From Schmidtea nova (Eukaryota): a DNA stretch of 64,000 nt. The stretch lies in the NCBI GenBank assembly GCA_044892505.1, contig CM097884.1, forward strand, positions 6,572,001 through 6,636,000, given 5' to 3'. Of this stretch, positions 28,069 to 63,952 are shown in pieces (position 1 is the first letter of the stretch; each line of letters starts with the position of its first letter). A model generated the notes under the pieces. The model was not told where the DNA came from, made no database searches, and saw only the letters and a list, made by a program, of their open reading frames with translations. Made by a program: the position numbers and the translations under genes.

Positions 28069-29406
28069 ACGATTTTATAACTGAAGCAACTATTTAATAA
28101 ATAAATATTTTTATATATTGAAATTATGTGTTCCTAGGGATTTATTTGCAATTATTTTAATCGTTTTTATCTTTGTTTTTATCCCCTGATTACACCAAAT
28201 ATATCCAATGACAGACATTCGATCAAAACCGTGTTTGGTCTCGCTATGCCTTGAATTCATAAAAAAGATCATTGGTGATCATTTACCTAGACAAAATCTC
28301 AGAAGTCAAAATCAGTCCTAAATCCTTTAAAAATATTCCCATTTTCTAAACAAGATTAATCTTAACTTATCAATTTGAGATCCTTACACTATTTAACAAT
28401 GAAATACAAAGGGACAAATCCAACCGTTGTCCATGAGAATGAAAATGCTGACAATTAGTGAAAGCCAGTAAAGAACAAATCCTAACAGTTTCCTAAAAAT
28501 GTTTATATAACTATTTTGTAAGCTAAAGTGACAAGGGGAATAGTTGGTTCTTACAGGAACTTTCTGCTATTATTAGTAAATAAATCTTGAACTCGCAGTA
28601 AATAAACGTCAAAAGCAAAGGATATGCAAGGTAAACGATTCGGATAAAACGCAATTCATGGCTAGATGATGCGCTCTAAGGAATCCAAACAGTCAATATG
28701 TACCAAGGCTAGGATTGTCATTTAGTTTATGGTATTATCCTGAAATTCTGAGTGAATAATTCTTTCCAAAAAGCTTTTCAGGTCTTCACTATCACAAATC
28801 TTCGGACACGTCTATGAATATTATATAAAATGCCATAGAAGAAATCAGAATGACATTTATTATCCGTGAACGACTGCAATGATATGAAATTTGGGATCTC
28901 CATTGTCACCTCGAAGAAGGTTCATGTAAAAAACCATTTCAGTGAATGTTAGTAGGAGGAAGCGTGGACGGGGGAACAAAGACATATGACGTCATTGCGT
29001 GTGTGCATCCAATCAAAATCAAGTGCCCCCGGGGAGGGGTACTTTTCTTTTTTTTTTGCGACCCCCCCAAAATTTTTTTTACACACACAAACGATGAGTC
29101 ATAAAACTTTTTTAAGCTCAAATTTTAAGGGACACTTTAAGGACATTTTGAGGACACTTTAATGTCAAATTTTAAGGACAAGTTAAGGTCAAGGTCACCA
29201 TGAGGTCAAGATTATGTTAAGGTCAATTTTTAAGGTCAAATTTTAAAAATTTTCAAAAATTCAAAAATTTTTCCAAAAACATAAAAAACTTAACAATTCT
29301 TTAAAAAACATAAAATTTTACAAAACATTTTTTCAAAAACACCAAGTGAGAATTAATCAACATTTATTAATAAATACACATATACATGACAACAATGTTA
29401 TTCCAT

Positions 29407-29850
29407 CTATGCAATTCTTGCGCTTTTTATCTTCCAAATTGGAAACATTGATTCTTTTGGATCGATTTTATATCCGTGGATGGATATATCAATAAACCAA
29501 TTTTCATTATCCGTATATTCAACTAATTGAAATGCATCATGAAATTCGGTGTTCCTGTTGTTGATGAATATTGTTTCATTGCAAGATAATTTCTTGTTGA
29601 TTTTCGTCAACAGTTTATTGATTGCAACAACATATTCTTTATAAATCTGATCAATTAAGTTGGAATATTGCGAAGTCGACAGCTTTACCGGATTTGAGAC
29701 CTTGAAAGAGATTTCGTTTACCAAGAAAAACATTTGGTAATCGTGAAACATCTGAACCGGTCGTAAATCAAATTTGTTTTGAGTTGATTTGTTATCGTTC
29801 CTAACTGGTTTCATTATAATTGGACTCGATTTACTGAGAAGATTTTGCAT
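29407..29850 (-). CDS. Intact 147-aa Maverick accessory ORF of unknown function
   Basis: Open ATG-to-stop frame with ordinary composition; TATA and CCAAT boxes upstream. Confidence 0.7.
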   Translation of the reverse strand: MQNLLSKSSPIIMKPVRNDNKSTQNKFDLRPVQMFHDYQMFFLVNEISFKVSNPVKLSTSQYSNLIDQIYKEYVVAINKLLTKINKKLSCNETIFINNRNTEFHDAFQLVEYTDNENWFIDISIHGYKIDPKESMFPIWKIKSARIA

Positions 29851-29878
29851 TTTATGAACAATACTATTTTTGTTTTCT

Positions 29879-29967
29879 TATTTATACTCGTCATCGTCTA
29901 TGTGCAGCCAATCAGATTCTTGCATATGTCTTGTAAATCAATTACACATGTCTTGCTAATCGATTGG
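29879..29967 (-). promoter_or_regulatory. TATA box plus two CCAAT boxes upstream of ORF 29850
   Basis: TATAAATA (minus, 29886-29879) about 30 nt before the ATG; CCAAT at 29908-29912 (plus) and 29967-29963 (minus). Confidence 0.55.
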
Positions 29968-30057
29968 ATATGTATTAATAATTGACTTTGTATGCATGTT
30001 GATGATTATCTACTGCAATTTCTTTCTATATATATTGTAAATTATTTACATATCACA

Positions 30058-30147
30058 ATTTTATTGTCTATCACAATTTTCTTGTCTATCGCAATTTTTT
30101 GTCTATCGCAATTTTCTTGTCTATCGCTATTTTCTTGTCTATCGCAA
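30058..30147. repeat. 18-bp minisatellite TTTTCTTGTCTATCGCAA running into a gap
   Basis: Five visible units. Confidence 0.85.
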
Positions 30148-30626: not shown

Positions 30627-33600
30627 CTATTCGGCATCTGGCCATTCGGCATCTGTCCATTCGGCATCTGTCCAATCGGCATCTGTCCATTCGGTATCGG
30701 GCCATTCGGTATTTGCTCACTCATCAGGATCATCTATAGTAGAGTCACCTCCCCCCCGATAATGACCATAGGCTAAACTTTTATTTTTACCCACCCAATT
30801 TCGTTTATCATCAGCGTTTGTTAATGCTTTTTTATTACTTTTTACACTAAACAACTGATGATCTTTGCTGGTTATGCGAAATCGGGGCACAGTGTAGATT
30901 TTATTATTTAAATAACAATCAAGATATGATTGGTGAGATAATTTAGTATCTTTGATTGATATACCTTTAGCCTTCATACTAGCTTCAATACCCGATAAAC
31001 TGTAGCATTTAGGTCTCAAAAATACCCATTCATCATATCCAAGGCCTTTACTCTCATCCTTAAATTTACCAATCACCGAGTCAAGGTTTCTTTAATATAA
31101 CAAATGAGTCGGATCATAATTTGATGTATCTAATAGATTATCTCTTATCATTGCTGGTAAGAGACAATCTAATTTACAATTTTTTATTTCTAGGAAAATT
31201 GAGCCGGTGTCCCTAGCAATAATATTGATTTGGCAATTAAATTCATTCCTGTATTTCTCCAAATCAATATACTGCAGCTGATACATGCGCAGTTTGGATA
31301 GATCTAGTACAGTTTGACCTATGTAACTAGGTCTATCCAAACACACCGACTCCTTTCTCAATAAAACTGAAATTAAATTATTATCTATTTTTGTACTCTT
31401 CCGAAAAGCCGGTTTAGAGCAATATGTTAATAGTTTTTGTGCAGAATTGCACAATCTTAAATTAATTCGTTTTTAGTGGTTTTCTACGGTTTTACCGTAT
31501 AAACTGTTATTTAGTAGTTTATAATAATTTTTATCAAGTTTATTTATGGCTGAAGCTCTTAATTGTGTATTTGTGTCAATATATTTTTTGAATATATTAT
31601 TTTGATTGAATTTTATGGCACGATGTACCTTAGATATTTTGACTCCTATATTAATAAATAATTGGAGAAGCCTCCAATGCAGAACGTAGTTTTTCTTGGA
31701 GTGGTACGTGAGCAAATGCTTCTCTACCTTTGAATTTGGCGCGCACATCTTTTCAGCTGCAACTGGAAAATCATCCAGTTTGTCGTGAATCGACGACGCT
31801 AAATCTACCTCTATGGTATAGCCATATGTAAGTAAATCTAAATCTAATGTTTCACACTCTAATAATATATTATTTAATAAAAAATCATCCGCTACCCATT
31901 TAAAATTACCCTCGGGGAGCTTTTGACTCAAAGTCCATCCATACAGGTTGTTGATGTTAATATACAACAACTCATTATCAGCGCTGGTTTTGACATAGTG
32001 CTTATTAACAAAGGTAAGCCCCCCACGAATCCCTTCCTCAAAGAAATTATAAATTTCCATGTCTTGGATCAGCTCTATAGGTTTGTCTAAAGTCATTAGT
32101 GCCGAACTCCAAGACATGACAGGAATGCCCAAGAAATTTAAGGGCTCAAGTTTATTATGAGCAAGTGATTTTGCTCTGAATTGCTGAAAGAAGTCAGCCA
32201 ATAGAAAAACATCTAATTTAAGATAGACCAACATGTAATCAAAAAGATTATTACAGTTGGTCTCTCGCCAAATATCTTTTGCCATTGAATAATCGGCCTC
32301 AGTTACATCTTTTCAAATTGGAGGCAATTCAGTAATAGATAAAAGAGCATCTAAGCTAGTGGCAACATCATATGGGAAAATCCCTTTTGAATTTATGATA
32401 GTGCCCTGAAATTCCATTGAAGTTAAAGGTAAAGTATTTAAGGTCTTTACAGCTTTATCTAAAGATTCACTTACAAATTATCAAGAGTCAATAAACTTAA
32501 CTGTAAGTGAATCTATTCGCGCAAACAGTGAAAGAAACTTTTCACTGGTAATTGGAATAACGCTAATATTCCATGACTCATATTTTGAAAGCCCGAATTT
32601 GAGGATATGATGTACATCATACCCTCTCAAATTATGGAAGACAACTGGTAAGGTATGTCGGACTTACCTCGAAGCATTACATTTCATGCAAGCAGCGCCA
32701 ATGAATCGACCAGTAAAATGATCATGATCCCTAACTAGGTTATTTAAAATTTTCTTACACAAATAACAGTTAGTAGAAGCATCAAAAATTAACTTATCTG
32801 CGTCACTAAAAATTATTTTCTTTTGATAATTACGGTAAAAGAAAGGTGTTACAATTCTCTTACTAATATTTTCTACCTCTGAAAGAAACTCATCAACATA
32901 ATTAAGACCTAAAAAGTGTTTATAAGTTTTTTCGCCGGTAACATTATTGATGAGTAACAAGCCAGCAGAAATCGGTAAGTGACGTTGAAAGTATTTAACA
33001 TCTTTTGGTAATATTGCCTCAAAGTCGGCATAGATAACAAAGGGAGGAGTGACAGTTATCGCTTAATCCTCGAATTCAAGATGTTTATTTTTAGGCAAAG
33101 TGTACAAAGTTGTACCTAACTGATTTTCAGCACATAAATCTATATGACTATTAAAAGAATCATCGGTTCGAAAACCATTAAGACATCTGGGACACCATTC
33201 ATTACAAATACGGACGGCTGTAAAGGCAGGATTCCTGCAATTTAAAAATTTATTTAAGTTAGTTATTGCAGCATAATGATATGTCTGAGAATTTTCAAGT
33301 AATAATAAATTAATTGGTTTTCCCCATACAACTTTGGAACGATAAATTATATCTATGAAGGGGTGTTTCATTACTTTCTCCTTATTTGTGATATCTACTA
33401 AAGCTTTTTCGTCATAAGAAAGGACGTTAATTGTTAAGCCGGGATTTTGCATTTCAAATTTAGAAATGCTCGAAAGTTTCATCGGCATTTGTGAAGGATC
33501 AAATTTAAGATCTGAAAGATTATACGATGAAGGTCTATTTCGAGTTTAACGTGTAATTGTATCATATTTTAAAATAGCCAAGACGCTATACACGAAACAA

Positions 33601-34793
33601 AAGTTATCATTATTAATTACGTTAACAATACAAAATTTATTTTTTAAAGTTTTTGGGGTATCTATAAATTTTTGGCCGCTTAACCTACTTATTTCCGCAA
33701 ATTTTGTGACAATAAAGCTGATATACTCTATTTTATTAATGGTCCAATTACTGTCCTTCTGATTAATTTTAATAATTTTTTCGTTTAATAAAGCAATACC
33801 TTCATCAATGAAATTATCACTCATGGGTCTGGCAGAATTTGAAATGACAAAAGATTGTAATTCGTCATCTTTCTCAAACTCCACCTTCAGACAAAATTTA
33901 ATTTTGACTTACCCCATTTGACTAATAACAGTATTTAATTTATTTAATAAGACATAGGGAACCGATACAGTTTTTAATATTAAGGATGAAACATCCATTT
34001 TAATAATTGAATGGGTACTGTTTAAATCAGTACTTATTTCAGGTTCTAGTGAACCGCATCCGATCTGATTATTAATAATATTATTATTATTATTTGTTGA
34101 CATATTAATTATTGATGTGATATTATTATTATTATTTGTTGACATATTAATTATTGATGTGATACTATTATTTTCATTTGGTGACATATTAATTATTGAT
34201 GTGATATTATTATTATTTTCATTTGGTGATATATTATTTATTGATGTGTTATTTTTATCATTATTAACATTATTTGGATGTATAATAGAATACGAATTAA
34301 TAATTACAGGAGTAATTTCATCCTCCTCGTCGGAAATATTAATTACTTCATTTTTAATAAATTTACAAGGAATTGATTCCTCGTTTAAAATTTTTCGTTT
34401 ATTGTTGTTACTGGAAAAATTATTATTATTATTAATATTATTAATATTATTAATATTATTACTATTATTTCTATTGTTGTTTGAGAAATTATTGACGTTG
34501 TTGTTGTTGGAAATATTAGTATTATTAATATTATTATTTCTATTGTTGTTTGAGAAATTATTGATGTTATTGTTGTTGGAAATATTATTATTATTTATAT
34601 TGTCGTTATGTATATTATTTTGAATATTTATTTTATTATTATTAAAAATAGCTTTTTTAGAACCAATATACGGAGTATAATGATATCGGTGTTTATCATA
34701 AAACTCAGTATATGAAAGGGTTTCGTTGATTTTACAAATAGGGCAAATGAGGAAGGTGACTCTACTATATTTATACGAATAGTACTTTTCCAT
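30627..34793 (-). pseudogene. polB: Protein-primed family B DNA polymerase (pPolB), disrupted
   Basis: ORF-track fragments 34793-33909, 33884-33546, 33488-33063, 32960-32664, 32285-31473, 31454-31092 and 31076-30717 chain through stops and frameshifts. Motifs: YADFE, DHDHFTG..ACMKCN, FHNLRGYD, YLKLDV, GIRGG, YININNLYG (D>N), KLLNNSLYGK, ARDTGS (degenerate GDTDS), LRPKCYS. Confidence 0.95.
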
Positions 34794-35254
34794 AATTTGA
34801 TGGCAATAATTATGTAAAGTACTATTACAGTATAAAGGGTAATTTGAACCTTTAGAATAAAAAATAATGATAAAATAATTATAAAATAATTATAAAATAA
34901 GTGAAAAATAAATTCAAAATAAACATAAGTTTAAATTATTACGAATAGTTTAATCTATTTTATCAGTTTAAACTATTACATAATATGATAATCAAATGTC
35001 AACACAAAAATAATTTTTTTGTTCAAAAGATTACGTCACTGTGTGAAGTGCGATTAACTAAATATGATAATTTATATTTTATTTATTAAATCACCGTATA
35101 AAATATGATAACGTGTTTTAATTGACATTAAATGTATTGAAGGGTAGGTATTAATATCAACTTTTAAAAGATTATATAATTATTATAACTAAATTAATAT
35201 CATTAAGTTAATATTATTTATTAAAAACTATTATTATTATTATTATTATTATCG

Positions 35255-35288
<34 letters not shown>

Positions 35289-35598
35289 CTAATAAAAACT
35301 ATAATAATCAAATAACTAATATTATTTTCAATAAGATATTAAATGTTTTTTATTATAACTTTTATTAATACTTTATATTATTATTGAAAATTAATACCAT
35401 TACGTTTCTTTTATAAAATATAATATTATTTTTATTATTTTATTGAATGTAAATGATATCAGTTTTTTGAAAATATTATTGAATATATTCATAGTTAATT
35501 GAGAATATTATTTAATTAAGGTAAAATATTAATATTAAAATATCATAAAAACTATTATAAAACTATTATAAAACCTTATAAAAAATTAAAAATCTTAC

Positions 35599-35936
35599 AT
35601 TTTGTTCTACCATTCGTCAAGGAATTTATCGATGCATTATTATAAAAATTTTCACCATTTGAAGCGTCATTAAAATTTGTTGCTGATACATTTGGGGCAT
35701 TAAATTCTATCGCCGATACATTTTGTGCATTTAAATGTTCTATAAAACATGAAATAAAATAATAAATTTACAAATATAATTTTACCGTTTCTATAAACAC
35801 CATTATTGTTATCGTTTCCAGATACATTTATAACATTTCACATATTATTTCTTGAAATTCCTAAAATAAAAAATAAATCCTTACCATTGAATCCATTGAT
35901 GTTGGTATTTTTAACTTTATTGATATTATTGTACAT
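35599..35936 (-). pseudogene. Putative spliced Asn-rich Maverick accessory gene
   Basis: ATG at 35936; phase-1 GT-AG introns 35884-35861 (24 nt) and 35785-35740 (46 nt); next donor GTAAGA at 35598. Product MYNNINKVKNTNINGFNG..NVSGND..EHLNAQNVSAIEFNAPNVSATNFND with one TGA in exon 2. Confidence 0.45.
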
Positions 35937-36260: not shown

Positions 36261-36530
36261 TTAATTTTTTAAATAATCTAAAGCCCCCACAAAACACCCT
36301 TTATATGCACAATTTGTATGATCTCGATATGGGCATGAAATATTGTAATATAATAATCTTAGGGAGGGGAAATATCTTTTTAAAACAGCAAGTTTATCTT
36401 GATCAGTGACATAGAAAATTGCACCAACATCTTCAATTTCTTTCAAAACACAAGTTGGACAAAAGTACCATTCATACAATTCTAATCTATCAGGTTCACC
36501 AATTCCAGCCCAAAAAGGAACATCATTATA
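36261..36530 (-). pseudogene. Maverick accessory protein fragment with Cys/His C-terminus (possibly exonuclease-fold-derived)
   Basis: YNDVPFWAGIG...IFYVTDQDKLAVLKRYFP...NISCPYRDHTNCAYKG resembles, from memory, a recurrent YVKG..K..WL...C..H...CA Maverick protein. The 5' end is replaced by 12-bp repeats (36530-36620). Confidence 0.4.
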
Positions 36531-36738
36531 TATCCGAAAATTATATATATCCGATTATATATATTATTATATATATTATTATATATCCGATTATATATAT
36601 TATTATATATCCGAAAAATATTATTAACATTCATAATACATAATTCTTTAATAATTATCCCATCGCAATTATCATTATAACCATAAATATCAATAAAATA
36701 ACAAATTATTTTCTAAAACATTTATTAAACTACATTGT

Positions 36739-37121
36739 TTATACTTTTAACATTGAATTAAGCCATGCAAGACAATGTTGACAACAAGTAATTGTTAATG
36801 GATGTTGATACCGAATTCGATTATATACAATCGGTTTACCCAATGTTTGTAGTTTACTAACTAATAAACCAGGGTAATAGCATCCGAAGGGATCGAATGC
36901 ATACACCTTGCTTGGTTTCACATATACAGCAATCCAATGTTCTCCGCCTAGAGTAGATGATTGAGTATTGGCAACTATGGCTTGGTTGACATCTAAATAA
37001 GGGATTTTGTCTAGTGGATATACTCCAATAAATTCATTTCCAATAATTGTTTTCCAATTCGATTAACCTGAATAGAACTATATAAATAGATTTATTTAAT
37101 AAATAATAAAACTTACTCCAT
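36739..37121 (-). pseudogene. Adenain-like cysteine protease with a 39-nt intron and a 1-nt frameshift
   Basis: ATG GA|GTAAGT...TATAG|T TCT ATT CAG gives MDSIQVNRIG; then FIGVYPLD, GEHWIAV, FDPFG, YQHPLTITCCQHC. Confidence 0.88.
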
Positions 37122-37161
37122 GAAAATTGTTAACTTTGACTTGTACATTTATATTGATAGT

Positions 37162-38040
37162 TTAAACCAAAACTGTTCGATTAGCAGTAATTTGAATTTC
37201 ATTTTCAAATACTCCATATATTATTACATGTACTGGTTCTTCAATAGCTTTAGAAAACTTTATGTCCAATCTCAAAATTTCGTTTTGAGGTAATTGACTT
37301 TGATTTAAATCGAAATCCGGATCCAAAACAAATGTAAAGAAAGGGTATTTGTTTTTAAAATCGGCTAGTGTTATACCACAATTCAAATTCTTATCTAAAT
37401 ATCCCATATCTCTGACCATCGACTGCATATATGTAGTACAATAATTATCATATTCAAATACTTGAGTATATGTTTCTCGATAATCAGTGTTTTTCGATAG
37501 AGATAGGGAAGTTACATTGAAATGTTTGAATTTCGAACTTGATGCATTATATGATCCATTGTATTGAGTTTCACTTTGAAATGCAACCAGAATGAAATTT
37601 GGCATTATTCGATCTCCAAATAATTTTTCCTTATAGAAAGATGACGCACCTTTACCTATTGCAAATTGTACTATTTCTTTGGTTTTCATTGGATAAATAG
37701 CGTGTTTTGAGTTAAGTCCAACTTGATGTCCAGCTAATACAAATGGTTCAACGCGAACGCGACGAATCATTAACTTTGCATCAACTAATTGACATTTTGG
37801 TGCAACGTTTTTTGAATATAGTGATAGTGCAGAATCCGAACGCTTCAGTCTGATGTGAACATTGACACCTGGTAATAAATATTTCGGTTGATCCATGAAA
37901 TCCAGTTGTAGAGATGAACACATTGTAAATAGCTTTGAGCCTTTGATCCACGCTTTTCTCTTGTCAGAATCTCCATATCCCATTGGAGTAAAACAAGTTT
38001 CTTTAGTATCACCATTATAATTTAAAATAGTTTCGATTAT
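37162..38040 (-). pseudogene. Major capsid protein (PY/hexon-like), C-terminal ~290 aa
   Basis: IIETILNY, LQLDFMDQPKYLLPGVNVHIRLKRS, MPNFILVAF, YNGSYNAS...FKHFNV, YPFFTFVLDPD, LRLDIKF and VIIYGVFENEIQI are typical of Maverick MCP. The N-terminus is lost at the junction with integrase. Confidence 0.88.
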
Positions 38041-38628
38041 TGCCTTTATTACCTTGATACACAAAATACTTTTTCAATCGATCTCTTAATGTACGATTAA
38101 ATTGTTCAATTTGGGCGTCTTTGAATTGAGAGAACACAGAATAATGATTAATCCCGGCCAAAACTTCTTTAACTTTACTATTCTAAAATTCTTTACCTAA
38201 ATTATAATTAACAATGAACAAAATTAGTATATATTCTTACCCAAATCAGTTTGTAAATTCTTTGGGCGACCGGACTTAAACATAGTTTTGATTGTAACAG
38301 CCATTTCATTTGCTGATTTAGTTTTAGTAGGAATAGCCCGAGCAAATCTATTGAAAACATCGATACATGTTAAAATATATTTATATCCCTTGTTAATATT
38401 TGAATAGGGAATCATTTTCATCAAATCCATTTGCCACAAGTCATTATTGCCATATGTTTTATATGCTCTTGTTGGAAATTGTTTCAATGCCGGTTTGTTT
38501 AGACTGTATATCAGTTGCCCCGATAACCATTTTTGAGTTTCTTTTTTCGAGTTTGGGACTTTTTTCTTTAGCTTTTCGACTCCACCGAAACCGGCGGGAT
38601 CTTTTGGGTTTGTCCATATCTTCTCCAT
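38041..38628 (-). pseudogene. Retroviral-like (rve) integrase with a 44-nt intron, C-terminally deleted
   Basis: PAGFGG, DLWQMDL, YKYILTCIDVF, LQTDLG|KEF, NHYSVFS and IEQFNRTL (D-D-E triad); intron 38240-38197; TAG at 38185. Confidence 0.9.
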
Positions 38629-38695: not shown

Positions 38696-39241
38696 TTATG
38701 ATTTTGAGGGTTTTCCTAGTAATCCTACACCACCTAATAAAGATAATGCTAATGGTACCAATGCTGCAATAAACCCTCCGTGTTGTTTATATATTATTTT
38801 GCGCATTTGTTTTTTATTTTTAGTATTTACTAGTGATAATAATGGTTTCTTGTGTTTGTTCAACACATTTTTATTTGATTTACTGATATTAATTTTACCT
38901 TTGACAACTTTAACTATAACATCAAGTAAATCATCAATTACATAATTGGGAAACGATTGTAAAATACTCATTCTTCTAATGCTTGGAGCCTTGAGTAATG
39001 CATTGAAAAATGGAAAACTGCGATGATTTTTTGATTTTTTACTTGCAGTTGCCTTTGATATCTTTGGTGTATCGGGTTTTGAATTGTGTGAAATTAGATT
39101 CATTTTGGGAAAATTTTCGGTGATTAATTTCTTCGGACGTGTAAAACTCGTTTTAGGTGGAATTATTGTTTCACGATTCTTTTTAATAACTTTTCTAAGT
39201 TTTGATATCTTTGGATGTTTGGCTCGTGCTTTAAATATCAT
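38696..39241 (-). CDS. Basic Maverick core/pX-like protein with a GGF protease-cleavage motif
   Basis: Lys-rich 181-aa ORF ending KIIYKQHGGFIAALVPLALSLLGG. Confidence 0.75.
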   Translation of the reverse strand: MIFKARAKHPKISKLRKVIKKNRETIIPPKTSFTRPKKLITENFPKMNLISHNSKPDTPKISKATASKKSKNHRSFPFFNALLKAPSIRRMSILQSFPNYVIDDLLDVIVKVVKGKINISKSNKNVLNKHKKPLLSLVNTKNKKQMRKIIYKQHGGFIAALVPLALSLLGGVGLLGKPSKS

Positions 39242-39872
39242 GATTAATTTCGAACATGAATTTAACTTTGTTTATAAACCATTGCTCCTTCTTTGTAAAA
39301 ATATCAGTTCTAACACGTAATTCATCACTACATTGTTGAGTAAAATCGAGAAAAATATATCCATGTGGGAATTTAGTTGCATCTTGAAATGCATTGATCA
39401 AATATTTCCGATTATTAGGGTTTGCCTGTCTTGCAAGAAAATCAATAACGGTAGCATCTCTAGGATTTTTAAAATAACTAGATATTGAACATTCAAATTT
39501 CAAGTTCGATGACTACCACCCTGATGAAATAAATTCTGAGTAATAAAAATAACTGTAACTCCTTTATGTCTAGCAATTTTTGTGAATTAATTATTGAAAT
39601 CCTTCTCTTTATTTGCTTCTTGATACAAATCATCAATAATAATTACATCACCACTTCGTAATCTAGACGACCAGGTTTTATCGAATCCTTTTATTATTGT
39701 CATTTTAATCTTACAGAATTGATCTTGAGTCATTCCATATTCATTATCAGCTCCCTATGCCAATAAAGTTTGATTTGAATAATTTTGATTGTAATAATTT
39801 ACAAACAAATAAAGTTTTTCCACTTCCACATGGACTGACAATTTGATAAACTGCATCATTTCTTAACTCCAT
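39231..39872 (-). pseudogene. Packaging ATPase (FtsK/A32-like), disrupted
   Basis: Walker A SPCGSGKT, Walker B VIIIDD, RHKGVTVIFITQ, FKNPRD, PHGYIFLD, LRVRTDIF; two stops and several frameshifts. Confidence 0.9.
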
Positions 39873-39968
39873 TTTCAAAATATTAAGAGTTTATGGATAT
39901 TGTTTATATTTGTTTTAATTAATTGTTATACTTTTACGAAAATTATTTAAAAAATAATCAGACTTATA

Positions 39969-40274
39969 ATGTTAAGCAACATAAAGTACAAAGGAAAATG
40001 TTCTGTTTCTCGTATGAAATTTCCAAATGGTAAGCCACAGCAGATTGTAGATAGGAAAGGTAAGTATCCTATAATATTTTTCAAGTCCGGTAAATGTAGA
40101 ATAATGGGATGTAAACAACCTCTTAAAGATCAAGATTTATTATATGAAATAAATGATTTACAAATACAATCGATTACAGTTACTACAGATATTAGGAAAT
40201 GTGTTAATTTACATGAATTGTCACAAAATCTCTCATGTTCTTATGAGCCAGAAATATTCCCAGCATTGAAATAA
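39969..40274 (+). CDS. TBP-like gene, copy 3 (3'-truncated by an (AAT)n tract), inside the Maverick
   Basis: PIIFFKSGKCRIMGCK resembles TBP TALIFSSGKMVCTGAK; LQIQSITVTTDI resembles FKIQNMVGSCDV; SYEPEIFPAL resembles SYEPELFPGL. Confidence 0.8.
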   Translation: MLSNIKYKGKCSVSRMKFPNGKPQQIVDRKGKYPIIFFKSGKCRIMGCKQPLKDQDLLYEINDLQIQSITVTTDIRKCVNLHELSQNLSCSYEPEIFPALK

Positions 40275-40383: not shown

Positions 40384-40499
40384 AATTGTGTGTTAGATAT
40401 ATTTATTAATTTTGCTTCTTTGTTACGATGCACTGACATTGCAATGTCTTTGTTAAGTTGCATCGGCATTGCAATGTCCTTGTTTAAATTGGGGTAGGA

Positions 40500-41012
40500 A
40501 ATTTTTTAAAATAGTGATAGAAAAATTTTTCAAATACACACATAAACACCATCTCTCATACTCAGCTGTCAATTACCTTTTGTTTGATATACATATTATA
40601 TAGTTTTAAAAATTTGAACATTGGACCCTTTATATAACCTTCAAGGGTATGACCTTCAAACTCATATGTCAATTACCTTTTGTTTGATATACATATTAAA
40701 AAGTTTTAAAAATTTGAACCTTGGACCTTTGTAGGGTATGACCTTCAAACTCACCATCAAAAGTCCTTATGAATGATATACAACTTGTAAGGTTTAAAAA
40801 ACATTTAAGTTTTGACACCCTTGAAGGTAATTGACCCACCATAGACCTTCGAAGGTATAACCATCATTCTTACCTCTGAAATACCTTTCGAATAATATAT
40901 AACTTGTAAGGTTTAAATATCTTTGAAGGTTTTGTATCCTTTGAAGTTTGAGCTCCCACTATAAATGTTCTAAAGTATGACCATCATGCACATCTCACAA
41001 ATACCTTTCGAA

Positions 41013-41083
<71 letters not shown>

Positions 41084-41379
41084 GAGGTTTGAAAAGATTT
41101 GAAGGTTTTGCACCCTTTGAAGGTTCAGGACCCTCCACAAACCTTCAAAAGTATGATCATTGTATAAACCTTTCCAAGACCTTTCGAATGATACCCTTGT
41201 TTGAAGGTTTGACCTTATTTGAGCTCTGGAAAGTCAAATTTAAAATCTGAATTTGAAATGAGTCATCGATCACGTCATAAAGAAAATCTTTCTACCCGGG
41301 GGGTTGAGTCATAATGTCTTTGTGTGAGTCATCAATGAGTCATCATGTCTTTGTTCCCGGCTCCACACTTCTACCTTCA
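40500..41379 (-). repeat. Maverick right subterminal region with ~100-120-bp imperfect tandem units and a TGAGTCA cluster
   Basis: TGTCAATTACCTTTTGTTTGATATACATATT twice; AATGATATA...AGGTTT...TTTGAAGG-type units about four times; TGAGTCA at 41259, 41305, 41325 and 41336. Confidence 0.7.
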
Positions 41380-41384
41380 GACAA

Positions 41385-42644
41385 ATAAATTAGATCGATA
41401 CTTTTATAAATTAGTAAACAACAGTCTTCACGGCAAGACTGTTGAAAATTTGAAAAAACGCATCAACTTGCGTTTATGCAATTCTGCCGGCAAATTATTA
41501 ACATACTGCTCGAAACCCACGTTTCGTAAAACAAATAAAATTGATAGCGATCTGATTTGTGTTTTGTTGCGAAAGGAATCAGTATGTTTAGATAGACCCA
41601 GCTACATCGGTCAAACTGTACTGGATTTATGTAAACTAAGAATGTATCAGCTACAGTATAAAGAGTTACAAAAATATCGTGACGACTTCAACTGTAAAAT
41701 TAACATTGTTGCTGGGGATACTGATTCCTTTTTTTAAGGTAAAAAACTGTAGTCTGGACATTCTTTTACCGATTATGATAAATGATTGCTTGCTGGATAC
41801 TTCTAATTATGACCCAATGAATCCTTTATACAGCAGAAACCTTGATTCTGTCATTGGCAAGTTCAAAGGTGAGAATAAAGGGATGCTGTATAAAGATTTG
41901 GTGTTTCTTCGACCGAAATGCTACAGCTTAATGGTTGATGAGGTGAGTATGAGGGCTAAGGTGATTGGCAATAAGGATACTGGACTAACACATACTGGAC
42001 TAACACTATATAAATAATAAAATCTATGCGGTTCCCAGTTTAGAATAACATCTAAAAACCACCAAAATTTTAGTGTTAAAAATCATAAGAGGTCATTAAG
42101 CTGTAGGGACAACAAGCGGAATCGGGTAGGCAAAAATAAAAGCCTGGCATATGGCCATTATAGAGAGCTAANNNNNNNNNNNNNNNNNNNNNNNNNNNNN
42201 NNNNNNNNNNNNNNNNNNNNNNNNNNNNNNNNNNNNNNNNNNNNNNNNNNNNNNNNNNNNNNNNNNNNNNNNNNNNNNNNNNNNNNNNNNNNNNNNNNNN
42301 NNNNNNNNNNNNNNNNNNNNNNNNNNNNNNNNNNNNNNNNNNNNNNNNNNNNNNNNNNNNNNNNNNNNNNNNNNNNNNNNNNNNNNNNNNNNNNNNNNNN
42401 NNNNNNNNNNNNNNNNNNNATGATCCCTGCTATTTTTATGAGGAGCCGGATCATAATTATTTGCGATGATGGCGGAAAACAAGATTGACGAACAGAAAAT
42501 CAAAAAAAGAACATTCAGATAATGAAAAACAGAAAATCACAAAAAAAAAGAAAATCAAAGCAAATATAGTCAAAAAGTTTATTATTATATTTTTATAAGT
42601 TTATTATTACTATTATCAATATTATGTTTATAAGTTTATTATTA

Positions 42645-47887: not shown

Positions 47888-47962
47888 TTAGCAACAGTCG
47901 CCTGGTGAAAAAGGTGGTGTTGTCATCTCACTTTGTACTACTTTATAATAATGATAATGATA

Positions 47963-48015
<53 letters not shown>

Positions 48016-48688
48016 TGAATCGATCCAAGAACTCATCGAATAAACTTTTTATTTTATCAGCAAACAATTCATCTGTCATATTGTCAAAGACATTACTATT
48101 TAACCATCGGAAATTCATTTTGTCCACACATTGTATTAACTTGTCAAGATCAAAGTCATAATCATACACGTCCACACCAATATCATTTTCATTCAAGATT
48201 TCTGACATATGATCTCCTGACAACACCATTAATTATACACAGTTCTTTCGAGATTCTCGAGAAGCAGTACAAAACTCAGCCGAACTAGCTTTCTGTTCAT
48301 TGAGATAACCTTCGACGTTGTAGACATCATAGAATTGCAATGCGATTAATTTTTAAGATTCATTGGAAATTGTGCTGGAAATCACGTCAATGTCTTTTAT
48401 TTTACAATTGAATTTGGTTCTTTCAATACTTTCATCTTTAATGTTGACAGCTGTTACGATTATTTTATGTGATAAATCTTTCCTCCATTGAATTACGAGC
48501 GAACCAGATGCAGACAAAGCATCTAAACATTCAACAGGATTTTCAGATGAACTGCAAAATGTGTTGAGCACCTCGAATACCAATTCTCTATTCATTGAAA
48601 ATTTGGGTTTGAAAGATACATCAGCACTTTTAGAAGATTGACATTCACCATCTGATAATCTATTTGCAATTTTTTCAGAATACAGCAT
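47888..48688 (-). pseudogene. Decayed ORF of unknown function (mirror copy from 63215 on + strand)
   Basis: ORFs 48688-48353 and 48229-47888 share one frame broken by two TAA stops; a (TAT)n expansion lies in the 3' part. Confidence 0.45.
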
Positions 48689-49679
48689 TGTCTGATTTAT
48701 TTTTAAAAACTTCCAATTTAAATCTCAACTTTGTCAAAAAACACTCAGCAAAATTTAAATCAACCAAAAAATTCCAATTGCCGAAAAGGTGCTATAATAC
48801 AAAAATCAAAATCAAAAATATGAATCGAGAATTAAAATTCCAATCTGAATCCAAGAAAATCAAAATAATTCGACGAAACAAATCAGTCAAAGCTTCATTG
48901 ATTCCACAACTCCACAATCTTTAATCAATTCCTAAGAATTCGAACAAACCCGCACACAGACGCGAGAAAAGTAAGTCATAAAAATAAATGATGCGCACAC
49001 AGAAGTCTAGAAAATTGACAACGCGCACACAGACGCGACAAAAAAAACAAATCACGCCCACAGTAAGCCTTCTATCTGAGCTACCNNNNNNNNNNNNNNN
49101 NNNNNNNNNNNNNNNNNNNNNNNNNNNNNNNNNNNNNNNNNNNNNNNNNNNNNNNNNNNNNNNNNNNNNNNNNNNNNNNNNNNNNNNNNNNNNNNNNNNN
49201 NNNNNNNNNNNNNNNNNNNNNNNNNNNNNNNNNNNNNNNNNNNNNNNNNNNNNNNNNNNNNNNNNNNNNNNNNNNNNNNNNNNNNNNNNNNNNNNNNNNN
49301 NNNNNNNNNNNNNNNNGAGAAACAATACTCATGTGAAATTTCTTTGGCCACAATTTCGATAATGTGTTTTTGAGGATTTATTGGTAAATTGTGTCATTTT
49401 CTCTTTTATAACTGTAGAAAATATATATATGAGAGATAAAATACATTCATTTTTTTATAAATATATTTTATAAGCATTCAAATACACAACTTATCTGAAG
49501 ACAGATTTGAAGATAATTTTCTTTTTTAACCTTTAATTGTCCAAAGATTGTAGAGAATTCTAAGAAACGACTTAATTTGTGACTATGTAATTCAGCGTCG
49601 AGACTGATTATATCCACTTTTAAACCGACTTTTCGAAAAAATATAAAATTTATAATGATATTATCTCAAGGTATATATG

Positions 49680-50345
49680 TTTAGATAGACCGAGCTATAC
49701 TAGACAAACTGTACTGGATCTATTTAAACTTAGATGTATCAACTCCAGTATGAAGAATTACAACAATATTGTAATGAATTCAACTGTGAAATTAATATAG
49801 TTGCTGTTGATACAGACTCTTTTTTTCTCGAAGACTAAGAATTGTAAGTTGGAAACTCTTTTGTCATCTATCGTTTATACTTTAAGACACTTCGAATTAT
49901 GATCCAGATCATCCTTTGTACTCGAAAATTCTTAATTCTGTCATTGGTAAATTCAAAGATGAGAATAAAGAATCCAATTATGATGAGGGGGTGTTTCTTT
50001 GATCCAAGTGTTATAGTCTTTTACGGGAAAAAAGAGCATTAAGACTAAGGGTATAACACTGAAGGGTACTGACCTGAAACATCAGTCATACCTGGATTGT
50101 TATAATAATAATACAATAGTTTCGGTCGACTAGTCGAGAATAGTTAGTAAAAATCATCAACTTTTAACTAATAAATCTCGTAAAAATGCTTTGACTAACT
50201 TTGGCGATAAAGTACTTTGAATAGGAAAAAATGAAAGTATTGAATGTGGTCATTATATGAGTATAGATGGGGTTATGGGTGCGTAAAAATGATGAAATCG
50301 ATGATGCCGATGAAGCCGAAGAATATTCAGATGTTTTTTATATCT
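49680..50345 (+). pseudogene. Third pPolB C-terminal fragment (degenerate)
   Basis: LDRPSY..QTVLDL, NIVAVDTDSFF, SNYDPDHPLYS, IGKFKDE, KCYS, GHY. Confidence 0.85.
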
Positions 50346-53300
50346 AAAATATTATTTTAAAATTTTGTGTTTTTCATAATTTATATGATTTTTATCAGTA
50401 GTGTTTTCAAATTGTTAGTTTTTGCTGCTTTTTATAATTTTTTATGAATTTTCTATTGTTTGCAGTTAAACTGTGAGTATTTTGATATCAAGATTATTGA
50501 ATTTTGACTGTTAGTTGCAATTACATTGCACTTGGTTTCTTCTTTAGACATTGTTTTTTATTAATAACAAGATTTAATTCCAAAAATTATATTCAATAAA
50601 TCAAATTATTCAAACAATATTAATCAATAATACTATTCGAATATTTCTTCTGAAGCATCGATAATTTTTATGAGCTATGATTCAAACATTATGTAATTCA
50701 CCATACCGATTAAATGTTATATTTGAAATTTTATTTAAAATTAAAATGTTTGAAATTAAAATTTTAAACTCATTTTTGAATTTAATAAAATTTTATAACA
50801 TTAATTTTTAAAACAATATTTATTAAACTTATTTTTTCAAATTTTTAAATATTTATATCAACACTTCACACTGACCATCTTTGGAAATTGTGAGAGTGGA
50901 CTCTTTTTACGTATACAATGGTGTCGGATGAGACCAATTTTTTATGTTTTGACTTATTTACCCTTTTTTGTTTGTCATTCAATTCTCAATAGATTGGTAT
51001 AAAAATTACTGAATTCTGAGCAGATTTTATTTTGTCGGTGGACACCGACTTTTTCATATTTTACATTTATACCTTTTTGTTCTTCATTTAATTCTCAGTA
51101 GAATGGTAAAAAAATTATTGAATTTGTGAAATTGTGAGAGTCGACCCATTTTGCTTGTAAATTGTCTGTGGGCTTTAAATTCTTCATGTTTTCCCTAATT
51201 TTTTGAAAAGATTTGAAAAATTAAATGACTATAAAAATCGGAATTACATCATCATTTCCATAACAAAAATTATCGTGTCATCGATAACAAAATAAAATAG
51301 ATTATAAAGTATTATGTAAAATAATGAGATTACATGAGACCTAAGTGTTATATAACTTTGTGAAACCCCAGAAAAACTTTAGGGGACTACTGTTAATTAT
51401 TATGTAATTTATGCAGTTTAGGAATAAATGGCTTGCGCCAGAGCGCTTGCTTCTCCTTACCATTTAATAATATAACTAGACATATTTCTGTTAATTAAAT
51501 TCGCTTTCACTTGTAAATTTGTTTTTAGATTTTTTATTTGTGATTTGATTTTAAAATCAGTTCCTATTATGTAACTCAATTAACCATTTTTATGAGAATA
51601 TTTTTTCTTTTCTTTTTTGAGAAATATAGAATTGGTGATTTTTACATGATTTCTGAAAAAAAGAGAGTTTCCCGTTTTTATTGATGGTTTTCTTGTAAAT
51701 ATTTTTTTTTGTTTACAAATTTATGAGAGTTGTCCTATTTTGTATGATCAATTGATGATGTTGACGCTTTTTACTTGACAGTGTTTATTTCATTTTTAAG
51801 AATTGTAAAAGTCCAAACTTTTCAAGTGAATATTTTGACGGTGGAGAATAATTTATGCTGGAAAATTGGAACTTGTTCATCCCTCAAAATATACCGGATG
51901 TTATTGTTTTTTCATTTAGGAATTGTGAAGGTCCACCCTTTTGCTCTAGATAACTATTGTGGATCAGTTTTTTTCTAGCAAACCATTTGGGAAACATGCC
52001 GGATAAAATTACAAAATTTATGACAGACTGAGTGAACGATTCTTATTAATATAAACATTTGCATTTGCATGTAACAACACGCTTTTTTTACTCTAGCTTA
52101 TAACTTACGCATGTGAAAAAGTGACAAGGATAGCTTTGCACAAAAATCAAAATATGCAAATCAATAAAACACTTTATTCGAAAAAAATATTTTTTAGTGT
52201 CAAAAGTGCGCTTTTATATATTTTTAATAAAATTTCCAAATTTGTATCAATTATACGCGTTTAATATTTTGAATAAATAATGTATTTAATAAAATTTAAT
52301 TTTAATTTAATAATTGAATAAATAAAGGACGGGCCAGATAAAAATCATTCTTGGCCGTAGTTTGGTGGGTGGCGAATTTGTTATGTCTATTGTAAATTAT
52401 AAACAAAAGAATTTTGATTTTGTTTTCCAGCCGATTTTATATTCATAGAATATTGAACTTTGAGGAGGAAGGGTAAAAATGTTTTATGAATGATATTGTG
52501 GAAATGTGAGGCGTTGTGAAAGCATGTTCTGTAACTTTTATATGCTCTCAACTAATTCCCGGTTGTGCAGTTTTCAATCAAAAGGGTTCAACTGTAATTT
52601 ACTTATCCATTGATGTGCTGCCCGTTCTATCCGATAAAGGTGTCGATGTATAAATGCTTAAAATAAGATACATGAGGAACTATAAACCTTCTTAATTCTG
52701 ATTATTTACATGTTATCTTAGGTTAGGGGTTATGAAGAAACCTTGAATTATTGAAAGACTATTGCTGACATCCATCTCGAATCTGATACTTCCATTGCAT
52801 AGGATAGTGAAACTAATCCGATCAGTTCTGGCAGCCACCTACATAATATATCGCAAAAAATATTATTATTTTATGATTTATTGTAATATTGATATAGTAT
52901 TATAAAAGTTTAGTAATCATTTTAAATTTTTTCAGATTTGTCATATATAATGATATAAAAAAGAGACTTGCGGAATGAATATATAAATAAGAGGTCAGAA
53001 ATGTCATGAAATGTTGCCAAGTAAAAGAAATAATTAAACGACACCTTGTGAATATATTGGAGAATGATTCTATATAATGATAGAATTTATATACAAATAC
53101 AAAATAAATTTCCACCTCTCCACATCCTAATATTCCCTAAACATCCTAGCTAGTGTACTTGTTTGGACAAAATAATTACACAGGTAAAGACGTCATATAT
53201 CATTGACAGAAGTGTGCATATAGTTATATTTTAATTAATATTATTTTTATTGAAATAAAAATAAAAATAATGAAGAAAATAATTTTACATTTTGTCATAT

Positions 53301-54406
53301 GAAAGCACTGATAAACTTAATAAAATATTAAATAATTATTTCTAACTTTAAAATATGTGTTCTTGATGGGGTCAAGATAAAATAAATAAAATATTTTATA
53401 AATTTAAACAACTACAAGTTTAACCTTCATATGACATTGACCTCCATCAGTTATTTTTTTATCCTAAAAATATAAAGATAAAATACAATAAATCTACATA
53501 TAAAGTGGTCAAAGATATTTTGTTTAGAACTGAAACATATTTTATAAAAATTCTTCAATTTGTTTTAATTTATTCATGACAGAATTGCATAATTTAGTAA
53601 TTGCTATGGAAGGTGACCGCTTTTATAGAAGGAAGCAAAATATGAAAGAATATAAATATGACATTTGTCAGATTTATGCGATTCTGGAACTAATTTTTTA
53701 AAATTATTTGTTTTGTTTATTGGCATATACTTTTAACTGAAAGTGTAATATTTTGACTTATAACAGTTGATTATGGCAATTTATTTCGATGACAATATAA
53801 TTTTGTTTATAAATAATCATAACATATTTGTGGTAATTTTTATTTATTTTTTGAGATTATCTTGAGTAAGGGTAAATTTTATATTTTATTTGTATTTATT
53901 ATATATAATATAGATTTATATTATTTGCAATTGAATTACAAACATGAACACACACATACACAAAAACACACACATACACAAAAACACACACATATATACA
54001 CACACTTATATATATTTAGCTGGGAAAACTTTACATAGTATAATTATATTATTAAATATCGCATAATGCTTGTTTGAATGTCAAAATTATAATTTGTTTG
54101 AATTAATAAAGTTTCACTTCAGGAAATTAGGCCAAATGCCTGTAAAATTATTTTTGTTGCGATATATTGTAAAACTCGTGAATTTGATGTATTTGTTGTG
54201 AAAATAATGATTTGTTATTTGTTGTATTGAGAAAGAGTAGAAATTCTACTAAATTCTTTACAAGCACAATAATAATAAAAACTGAATGCACATTTATCCC
54301 GATATTTATATTCGTGATCTGACGAAATAGATTTTATTAACGTTTGACTAGTGGACAAAACAAGTGAAAGAATCAACAGTTCGGTTGTTACAGCTTATCA
54401 AATTCT

Positions 54407-55641
54407 CATAAAAATGAGAAACAAATAAAAAATAATTATATTATTGAAGTTGATAAAACTGGATCTGTATAGCCATTCACAAGAGGGGAGGTTTTGCCCT
54501 TTCATTGTCAATTCGTCAATTTGACAATAATAACTATGACAACTTACCAAGGTTACAAATAAATATTTACAAATAAATAATTAACAAGGTTACAGTATAA
54601 ATGAAATATTACCATTATTGGCTTTGGAAAATTTTTGAGGTAAGTTTTATTTATTATTATCAATAATATTTTAAAGTTTTTATAGATTTTTGTTTATAAT
54701 GAGTTTTTAATTTATATAATTCAGTCGTCATTCCAATATTTGTGAGTTTTTGATAAAAATATTTAGATAAAAATTCTTTATTTGAAAAAAACTTGTTCAA
54801 TAATATCTAAAATTAATTTTGTGAAAAGGACTGCTATCATAATCTGTCTACTGAAAAANNNNNNNNNNNNNNNNNNNNNNNNNNNNNNNNNNNNNNNNNN
54901 NNNNNNNNNNNNNNNNNNNNNNNNNNNNNNNNNNNNNNNNNNNNNNNNNNNNNNNNNNNNNNNNNNNNNNNNNNNNNNNNNNNNNNNNNNNNNNNNNNNN
55001 NNNNNNNNNNNNNNNNNNNNNNNNNNNNNNNNNNNNNNNNNNNNNNNNNNNNNNNNNNNNNNNNNNNNNNNNNNNNNNNNNNNNNNNNNNNNNNNNNNNN
55101 NNNNNNNNNNNNNNNNNNNNNNNNNNNNNNNNNNNNNNNNNNNNNNNNNNNNNNNNNNNNNNNNNNNNNNNNNNNNNNNNNNNNNNNNTTTTTCAGTAGA
55201 CAGATTATGATAGCAGTCCTTTTCACAAAATTAATTTTAGATATTATTGAACAAGTTTTTTTCAAATAAAGAATTTTTATCTAAATATTTTTATCAAAAA
55301 CTCACAAATATTGGAATGACGACTGAATTATATAAATTAAAAACTCATTTTAAACAAAAATCTATAAAAACTTTAAAATATTATTGATAATAATAAATAA
55401 AACTTACCTCAAAAATTTTCCAAAGCCAATAATGGTAATATTTCATTTATACTGTAACCTTGTTAATTATTTATTTGTAAATATTTATTTGTAACCTTGG
55501 TAAGTTGTCATAGTTATTATTGTCAAATTGACGAATTGACAATGAAAGGGCAAAACCTCCCCTCTTGTGAATGGCTATACAGATCCAGTTTTATCAACTT
55601 CAATAATATAATTATTTTTTATTTGTTTCTCATTTTTATGA
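54407..55641. repeat. Nested inverted repeat (~450-bp arms) centred on an N gap
   Basis: 54407-54858 mirrors 55189-55641 with about one mismatch. Confidence 0.92.
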
Positions 55642-58600
55642 AATTGAATAAATTGACCAAATTTATCTCCTAAACCTTGCATCCAATAACCATATAATGC
55701 GTAACCACTCTAGGATTTTATCTATTGCTATATACAGATATTCAAAATATAAATTTACAGTTAATATTATTTTTTTACTTCCATTGAAAGTTATTAGAAC
55801 AAATTGCATTATTATTGTGATTATAAATATCCCTCGCGCCTGCCAGCCCCAAGTTATTGTCACGTAATGGTAAGCTATAAACCATTCATGGCTTACAAAG
55901 TGTCAGTGGAAAGCGCTAACATAATGTTTTTTCTATTTTGAAAATTTTAAAAGAGGTCAACAGTAAAAATTCGTCAAGATCTTTTTTCTGTATTTATAAT
56001 AATTTCTATTAAACATGAACTCAGCCGATTTTCGATAATTCGGTCCCTCTTGGAGAAAGTAGGGAAAGTGAGATTGATATAAAACCACTTGTAAATGGCA
56101 TTGACAACATATATATTTGTATATGAATACTTCACAGGTGAAATTCTTTTTGTGAAGTATTATTAATAATTATAATTTTACTCGTAATTATGATCATTAT
56201 TTTGTTAATATAACAAATAAATTAATCATCTGTATTGTCTTAATGTTGCTCAGTGAAACATTTAAAGAGAAATCTTTTCAAGTGACCGAAGTGTACGCAT
56301 GAATTAATAAATATCATTTAAATTATATTAAAGAATTCTGAAAAAATCTCAAATTTTTATTTTCGATATATTTTTCCTATTTTTTTTTTGTTTTAATTTA
56401 ATTTAAATTTTATTGCCGATAAAATACACAAATAAATCACAATTAGTAAGTCCACCAACAAATAAAACATTTAAATTACAAATTATTTCTAGCAAAACAA
56501 TTTCAAAATTCCGTATTTTTCTTATTGCCAATTGAAATAATTAATAAAACAATTAATCTAAAATATTCAAAGTAAAAATTTGTTCACATTTTATATCATT
56601 CGATTTTGATTAGAAGCAAGATTTAAACAAAATTTGTTAGTATATTTGGAAAGTCTATTACAAATAATGAAAATTATGAGAATAATTAAATAGAAATATC
56701 ATTTAATTTTGGGATAAATAGATATAAAAACCATAATAAAAATAAATAATAATATTATAAATTAATATTATAAATAAAATTTAGTTATTATTTGGCTTCA
56801 TTGTAAATTTCATATTTAAGAATGATTGGAGAATGAAAATATAAAATATTTATTGAACGCTTGTATATGAATATTCATTAATCAATTATTAACTCATGCT
56901 TGCTAAAATATACTCAAATATAAATACGAAATTGTTTAAATTTTGTGTTGTGTTTAAAAATATAGATTTCTGAAATCATGCCGGTTTTTAATTTAAGAAA
57001 CCAAACTAATAATAGTAATATTCCATTTTGATAAAATATTTCAATGACAAAGTAGCAGTTAAAGTCCTAGAAAGATAAATTAAAAATTTTTATGAAATTT
57101 CTATTTGAAAGTAATAATTTACCATATAATAATATTTTNNNNNNNNNNNNNNNNNNNNNNNNNNNNNNNNNNNNNNNNNNNNNNNNNNNNNNNNNNNNNN
57201 NNNNNNNNNNNNNNNNNNNNNNNNNNNNNNNNNNNNNNNNNNNNNNNNNNNNNNNNNNNNNNNNNNNNNNNNNNNNNNNNNNNNNNNNNNNNNNNNNNNN
57301 NNNNNNNNNNNNNNNNNNTAATTTCTCCCACCATTTATTTATTTTTGATACTTTTTCACTTATAAAGAAGTTTGCAATAAAATTTATATTCCATGCTTGA
57401 ATGAAATTCAGCATTTGTTTACCTAAGAACAAAAAGTGCCATATTCATGTTCATTTACTCCCAAAATAACAAAATTAAATATCATACATTATTAAAAATT
57501 TGATAAGCTGTAACAACCGAACTGTTGATTCTTTCACTTGTTTTGTCCACTAGTCAAACGTTAATAAAATCTATTTCGTCAGATCACGAATATAAATATC
57601 GGGATAAATGTGCATTCAGTTTTTATTATTATTGTGCTTGTAAAGAATTTAGTAGAATTTCTACTCTTTCTCAATACAACAAATAACAAATCATTATTTT
57701 CACAACAAATACATCAAATTCACGAGTTTTACAATATATCGCAACAAAAATAATTTTACAGGCATTTGGCCTAATTTCCTGAAGTGAAACTTTATTAATT
57801 CAAACAAATTATAATTTTGACATTCAAACAAGCATTATGCGATATTTAATAATATAATTATACTATGTAAAGTTTTCCCAGCTAAATATATATAAGTGTG
57901 TGTATATATGTGTGTGTTTTTGTGTATGTGTGTGTTTTTGTGTATGTGTGTGTTCATGTTTGTAATTCAATTGCAAATAATATAAATCTATATTATATAT
58001 AATAAATACAAATAAAATATAAAATTTACCCTTACTCAAGATAATCTCAAAAAATAAATAAAAATTACCACAAATATGTTATGATTATTTATAAACAAAA
58101 TTATATTGTCATCGAAATAAATTGCCATAATCAACTGTTATAAGTCAAAATATTACACTTTCAGTTAAAAGTATATGCCAATAAACAAAACAAATAATTT
58201 TAAAAAATTAGTTCCAGAATCGCATAAATCTGACAAATGTCATATTTATATTCTTTCATATTTTGCTTTCTTCTATAAAAGCGGTCACCTTCCATAGCAA
58301 TTACTAAATTATGCAATTCTGTCATGAATAAATTAAAACAAATTGAAGAATTTTTATAAAATATGTTTCAGTTCTAAACAAAATATCTTTGACCACTTTA
58401 TATGTAGATTTATTGTATTTTATCTTTATATTTTTAGGATAAAAAAATAACTGATGGAGGTCAATGTCATATGAAGGTTAAACTTGTAGTTGTGTAAATT
58501 TATAAAATATTTTATTTATTTTATCTTGACCCCATCAAGAACACATATTTTAAAGTTAGAAATAATTATTTAATATTTTATTAAGTTTATCAGTGCTTTC

Positions 58601-61557: not shown

Positions 61558-62223
61558 TATAAAAAACATCTGAATATTCTTCGGCTTCATCGGCATCATC
61601 GATTTCATCATTTTTACGCACCCATAACCCCATCTATACTCATATAATGACCACATTCAATACTTTCATTTTTTCCTATTCAAAGTACTTTATCGCCAAA
61701 GTTAGTCAAAGCATTTTTACGAGATTTATTAGTTAAAAGTTGATGATTTTTACTAACTATTCTCGACTAGTCGACCGAAACTATTGTATTATTATTATAA
61801 CAATCCAGGTATGACTGATGTTTCAGGTCAGTACCCTTCAGTGTTATACCCTTAGTCTTAATGCTCTTTTTTCCCGTAAAAGACTATAACACTTGGATCA
61901 AAGAAACACCCCCTCATCATAATTGGATTCTTTATTCTCATCTTTGAATTTACCAATGACAGAATTAAGAATTTTCGAGTACAAAGGATGATCTGGATCA
62001 TAATTCGAAGTGTCTTAAAGTATAAACGATAGATGACAAAAGAGTTTCCAACTTACAATTCTTAGTCTTCGAGAAAAAAAGAGTCTGTATCAACAGCAAC
62101 TATATTAATTTCACAGTTGAATTCATTACAATATTGTTGTAATTCTTCATACTGGAGTTGATACATCTAAGTTTAAATAGATCCAGTACAGTTTGTCTAG
62201 TATAGCTCGGTCTATCTAAACAT
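61558..62223 (-). pseudogene. Mirror copy of the third pPolB fragment
   Basis: Reverse complement of 49680-50345. Confidence 0.85.

Positions 62224-63887: not shown

Positions 63888-63952
<65 letters not shown>

Follow-up and report, generated by a model that had tools for sequence, protein, structure and literature searches.

The window analysed here, a 64,000-nt stretch of the Schmidtea nova genome, carries a Maverick, identified as such because the genes flanking the segments discussed below match the rve, Peptidase_C5, DNA_pol_B_2 and TBP profiles. In order of position, the element comprises the following features.

28951..30072, no strand assigned: remnant of a terminal inverted repeat, matching both ends of sibling copies
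30717..34849, minus strand: polymerase-containing frame (protein-primed family B; PF03175, E=3.2e-17; PF02945, E=4.1e-6)
34850..35936, minus strand: predicted 5′ exon–intron structure leading into the polymerase frame, drawn by eye, with the start at 35936
35598-34850, minus strand: predicted GT-AG segment of 749 nt, by eye, its acceptor kept in copies
35785-35740, minus strand: predicted GT-AG segment of 46 nt, by eye
35884-35861, minus strand: predicted GT-AG segment of 24 nt, by eye, probably damaged
36261..36712, minus strand: conserved small gene after the protease, broken here and about 150 aa long in siblings
36739..37077, minus strand: protease part 2, with EHW and CC/CG motifs (Peptidase_C5, PF00770, E=7e-5)
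37078..37116, minus strand: phase-2 GT-AG insert of 39 nt in the protease, a likely intron, found at this position in other families and metagenome relatives too
37117..37121, minus strand: protease part 1, the start codon and two bases, from the sequence
37162..38045, minus strand: 3′ part of a putative major capsid protein gene
38046..38196, minus strand: integrase part 2, truncated here, holding the E of EQFNRTL by alignment to homologues
38197..38240, minus strand: phase-1 GT-AG insert of 44 nt in the integrase, a likely intron judged from the sequence and siblings
38241..38628, minus strand: integrase part 1, 129 codons and one base (rve, PF00665, E=1.8e-8), with the first and second acidic residues of the DDE triad placed by motif
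38696..39271, minus strand: basic protein between ATPase and integrase
39231..39872, minus strand: packaging-type ATPase with a Walker A motif, carrying stops and frameshifts here
39951..40274, plus strand: TBP-like gene (PF00352, E=1e-8)

The window copy is dead, a point absent from the initial annotation. Integrase part 2 contains an in-frame stop (38185-38183), protease part 2 is frameshifted early, near 37050, and about 2.2 kb is deleted at around 38045, which fuses the capsid gene to the integrase remnant; the ATPase and polymerase genes are likewise interrupted by stops. Because the copy is decayed, the window alone could not settle whether the two inserts are introns. We take 37162..38045 to be the 3′ part of the major capsid protein gene from gene order and size; the putative jelly-roll major and minor capsid frames have the expected size and place and no Pfam match, and the putative minor capsid gene occurs twice in tandem in two relatives (L100:188-1830 and L101:5577-7684). 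No Pfam match was found for the small gene after the protease either. Homologues of the ATPase (L101 and L094, 71–73% identity) match Pox_A32 (PF04665) above the cut-off, and the TBP-like gene is also found in four Maverick relatives (L101, L104, L116, L117). The element terminates in AGTAGG at 28951, and its other repeat end survives as pieces only, near 40417-41281. Siblings with 95% identity in the integrase region match the polymerase region (30726-34030) with only about 70% DNA identity, which suggests module exchange between Maverick subfamilies. Just outside the element lies a second polymerase 3′ fragment (41339-42165, plus strand), 72% alike to the first.

Elsewhere in the window there is a host cytochrome P450 gene with several exons (1758-7781, minus strand; a 74% homologue matches PF00067) and two frames (4819-5841 and 13851-14510) that, by eye, are presumably Tc1/mariner transposase remnants. 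A near-perfect palindrome of about 16 kb (47945-63958, arms 100% complementary, centre near 55023) is either an assembly artefact or a very recent inverted duplication.

The two inserts in the core genes have canonical intron ends. The integrase insert (38240-38197) runs from GTAAGA to TTTAG and the protease insert (37116-37078) from GTAAGT to TATAG; they are 84% and 90% AT, respectively, with GTAAG donors and TAG acceptors. The 44-nt insert splits the Gly codon of the TDLG-KEF motif, which is in one piece in 107 of the 120 integrase homologues listed (74 read TDLGKEFY), and its removal carries the frame on to the catalytic E in part 2. The 39-nt insert sits directly after base 5 of the protease coding sequence, and its removal yields a start that falls in the same alignment column as the M-N/D/H-S/T start of uninterrupted homologues. 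Both coordinates and ends given in the initial annotation, along with the restored motifs and starts, were borne out, and the flanks of the inserts are exactly colinear with intronless homologues. Such matching ends arise rarely by chance, in three of about 121,000 random 44- or 39-nt stretches of this window. If retained, the integrase insert would end the frame before the catalytic E, and the protease insert would bring in a stop at the third codon. The best uninterrupted homologue of integrase part 1 in a protein search is 72% identical, so no spliced product of this Maverick family was found there; partial integrase matches start at internal Met codons and give no hint of other intron sites.

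A DNA search of the 1.25-Gb genome with the integrase region returned 4,121 candidates, and the element is present in thousands of copies. The integrase insert occurs in all 30 of the top genome matches that were fetched. Across 60 sibling loci (a set in which two places are counted twice) GT...AG is kept at 57, one end is changed at two and one is unmatched. Exact patterns, which give lower bounds, found at least 1,206 integrase junctions and at least 3,310 protease inserts, with a count of 0 in the reversed-pattern control. Among 10 longer copies, nine have terminal inverted repeats of 1.3–1.7 kb that are 85–99% identical, seven have an exact 6-bp target-site duplication, and in three all core frames are open apart from the inserts, an intact fraction that is biased upward because these copies were picked from the top integrase matches. 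Judging from these repeats, duplications and open frames, insert-bearing elements have been integrating recently. We give next to no credence to the reading that the inserts are assembly or chance artefacts: the very high AT content of the genome and the 16-kb palindrome in the window could favour it, but the same structure recurs in thousands of genomic copies and in independent metagenome contigs, and the latter refute it.

In subfamilies about 80–84% identical in the integrase, its insert lies at the same base and is 40, 41, 43 or 44 nt long with differing interiors; protease inserts are 37–43 nt among the genome matches listed. These lengths fall in all three frames, and read-through therefore cannot explain the inserts. 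Their interiors are not conserved (19–25 of 31–36 bases alike, in AT-rich sequence). For three pairs of insert-bearing subfamilies, dN/dS (Nei-Gojobori, each gene part taken alone, dS 0.29–1.4) was 0.10–0.16 for integrase part 1, 0.075–0.17 for integrase part 2 and 0.105–0.168 for protease part 2, values that place both integrase halves and the protease under purifying selection. Since part 2, with the catalytic E, is linked in frame to part 1 only after removal of the insert, its conservation points to splicing. A different reading is that the inserts are inactivating and that this is a non-autonomous family moved by the integrase of intron-free sisters. Sister families with an uninterrupted integrase do exist in the genome and the window copy is decayed, but the purifying selection between insert-bearing subfamilies, the preservation of GT/AG and of position while length changes, and the presence of the protease insert in a sister family as well make this reading very improbable. 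The same sister families bear on the need for splicing, since in principle their integrase might act in trans on this family.

The sister families with an uninterrupted integrase gave 164 matches to a degenerate motif, and none of the 100 of these matches that were listed is an insert-free member with this family's codon form. A narrower insert-free motif had three genome matches, all rejected as insert-free members of the family: L189 (76% identity) and L190 (under 50%) come from other families, and L152 is part of a decayed copy with about 60% identity. One sister family (e.g. L169-L171, G000:C1:17245000-17256000) often has a fold-back structure, in which the ATPase-to-protease block is followed by the same block inverted; in these copies the integrase motifs are about 7.2 kb apart with no polymerase between them.

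Introners, mobile introns that are known in dinoflagellate Polinton-like elements (PMC12166617, available in part), suggest another origin, in which introner copies hit the Maverick after integration. Such copies would place the same insert at many unrelated sites. For the integrase insert, to which this comparison was applied, that was not seen: 440 of the 445 genome matches to its 5′ part lie directly behind the end of the integrase exon. The two inserts also have different sequences, each inherited at its own fixed position, and we regard post-integration insertion as highly unlikely, while an ancient introner origin is conceivable. A tandem duplication of the flank was rejected as the origin, as the resemblance between the start of the insert and the next exon is, by inspection, lost in other subfamilies.

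Taken together, these comparisons make it very probable that both inserts are U2-type spliceosomal introns of the element lineage and not of this copy alone, with GT...AG ends, a host-like donor, an AT-rich interior, flanks colinear with uninterrupted homologues, and a fixed position with variable length; from the same comparisons we infer that they are removed from the RNA. An intron-bearing Maverick lineage, as the initial annotation had proposed, thus has strong comparative support from siblings, metagenome relatives, trees and dN/dS, as does the likely dependence of integrase and protease on splicing.

More distant relatives probably separate the two introns in time. A metagenome scan yielded 47 loci, of which three begin inside the gene and 44 have a readable start region, with one further start region cut too close to call. 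At 11 of the 47 loci, ATG and two bases are followed by a GT...AG segment of 37–43 nt and then by the conserved Ser/Thr; these loci represent seven lineages with 48–70% mutual identity, and nine of the 11 loci have no in-frame Met ahead of the EHW motif in part 2. The remaining readable loci have an in-frame ATG and no protease insert. Protease matches in a viral-contig scan reached only 34–36% identity.

Trees were obtained by quick searches with SH-aLRT support and without bootstrap. The capsid-protein tree has 38 rows, and three of its outgroup labels were checked once it was built; the 18 rows that carry the protease insert all fall, together with L099, in a single clade (SH-aLRT 100). L099, in the clade, and L102, outside the tree set, lack the protease insert; L099 has inserts near the polymerase start. 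In the integrase tree (44 rows), the five insert-bearing rows form one clade (SH-aLRT 99) nested among 39 uninterrupted rows. Among the latter are sister families from this genome, and also L094 and L101, which have the protease insert and an uninterrupted integrase. In the rows compared here, the integrase insert is seen only in this genome. The placement in both trees and the pattern of L094 and L101 indicate that the protease intron is likely old, gained early in the clade, and that the integrase intron is likely a later single gain. The two introns had been presented as one lineage trait; both are indeed inherited, but their ages differ.

The size of the inserts had been likened to that of host introns, which roughly holds. 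The P450 gene in the window has a 39-nt intron (7424-7386), and host chaperonin genes have 10 distinct introns of 44–51 nt, found in a scan limited to 30–100 nt across 13 loci, of which seven had matches and two are the same gene; the element introns thus lie at the short end of the host short-intron class (39–51 nt measured). Relatives from other sources also have introns of 37–43 nt, so that size lends no support to an adaptation to the miniature-intron spliceosome of this host in particular. Among the chaperonin-family matches, 71 of 92 are a multi-copy C-terminal fragment (profile about 345-488, e.g. L224-L230), in some cases inside long open frames, resembling a piece of a host gene carried by a repeat.

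The element lineage probably contains further introns. In nine of the 10 longer copies a small reverse-strand gene is interrupted by a 54-nt insert, which has a counterpart at the equivalent site in two other subfamilies. The polymerase-containing frame has no start of its own ahead of the conserved Cys/His region; in nine of the 10 longer copies, and likewise in other subfamilies, it begins at an AG acceptor, and where the frame of the window family meets this acceptor, the sequence of relatives shows a Met and a Cys. Further intron-like segments were found in the polymerase-start region of L093 (five) and L096 (four), and in L103 (3026-3075) the small gene that follows the protease is, by eye, interrupted by another GT-AG segment, about 43 nt long. 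A rough count of intron motifs, with thresholds set after inspection of the data, found 21 of them in the 56 kb of 13 contigs of the clade, against 4.1 in block-shuffled sequence; six of the 21 are protease inserts. For 34 other contigs it was 3 in 130 kb, against 1.5.

We propose that the host spliceosome would remove both inserts from RNA polymerase II transcripts of the element, and that full integrase and protease would be made only after this removal. A single early gain in a clade of AT-rich Mavericks probably gave rise to the protease intron, and the integrase intron probably came later, in one branch, which then multiplied in this genome. Mavericks copy as DNA, so the introns would not be purged, and their small size and strong splice sites may also have helped them to persist.

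A more elaborate possibility is that the introns are real and also act as a regulated switch, in which retention shuts off the protease, and with it virion maturation, or truncates the integrase to a possibly repressing form; the third intron of the P element is the model for cell-type-dependent retention. The position of the protease intron is kept across lineages at 48–70% identity, retention leaves a two-residue product, ended by a stop at codon 3, in all 11 metagenome relatives, and the retained integrase frame stops ahead of the catalytic E. However, donors and acceptors are of strong consensus, the interiors are not conserved, any phase-2 GT(A/G)A donor creates the codon-3 stop by itself, and L099, L102 and the sister families manage without one or the other intron. 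The control switch raised in the initial annotation gained no support from these features, and we consider it unlikely. Equally doubtful is the wider version, that the whole Maverick clade depends on splicing and that the intron just behind the protease start codon gates virion maturation; if it were true, host splicing would decide between the transposon life and the virus life of Mavericks.

The sources on known systems were available in part, and what follows holds for those parts. The element resembles animal Mavericks/Polintons (Eupolintoviridae, adintoviruses) in its terminal inverted repeats, 6-bp target-site duplication and length of about 16 kb, and in its pPolB, rve integrase, ATPase and adenovirus-like protease. 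Unlike published animal Mavericks, it carries inserts at inherited positions in the integrase and protease genes, and probably also in the polymerase frame and a small gene. That Maverick core genes are usually called intronless is correct: no introns are reported in intact vertebrate Mavericks, the core genes being intronless (PMC8097293), and in Caenorhabditis nematodes the core genes are intronless and introns occur only in cargo genes (bioRxiv 10.1101/2022.07.12.499685). Intronless core genes are a described, non-defining trait of Mavericks, and the element studied here lacks it. The available portions of PMC10748475, PMC8502044, PMC11296320, PMC9356565, PMC6431247 and 10.64898/2026.10.13.758929 mention no spliceosomal introns in core genes. 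In the parts of the literature covered, we came across no animal Maverick described as having inherited spliceosomal introns in its core genes.

Other systems share single aspects of the arrangement. The mobile introners of dinoflagellate eupolintoviral elements are mostly inferred to have arrived after integration and to avoid coding regions (PMC12166617); the likeness is in having intron-type inserts inside Polinton-like elements, and the difference is that the inserts described here are fixed, inherited, located in core genes and, for the integrase insert, not repeated elsewhere. Adenoviruses, which are related dsDNA viruses, use the host spliceosome and join pTP from two exons (PMC11304566), which resembles the 5′ exons predicted ahead of the polymerase frame; unlike the element, they have long leader-to-body splices and do not integrate, and a 40-nt intron inside the adenovirus protease coding sequence was not found in the accessible part of that source. 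Ginger1 integrase-like transposase genes have 1–4 GT-AG introns, some at conserved positions, in what is, unlike the present element, a simple cut-and-paste transposon without such polymerase, capsid or protease genes (PMC2836005). Given adenovirus splicing and the Ginger1 introns, the intron trait is known in relatives. In addition, group I introns are described in PLVs (PMC12220804), and in a planarian, loss of PIWI is followed by Polinton expression (PMC8532177).

These introns matter for how such elements are counted. Surveys count a Maverick as intact if its core genes form open frames free of introns (PMC8097293, in the part available), and viral genes are assumed to be without introns in PMC9356565, as far as its accessible text goes; survey pipelines of this kind would score this very abundant, recently integrating family as broken. 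Gene callers already give relatives false protease N-termini, five of the 12 protease protein matches beginning with residues that resemble translated intron tails. The nested gains, with an old protease intron, a younger integrase intron and several lineage-specific introns near the polymerase start, would constitute a datable series of intron gain in a virus-like element. Finally, the introns would imply nuclear transcription by RNA polymerase II and would limit the host range of these Mavericks to organisms able to splice out introns of about 40 nt.
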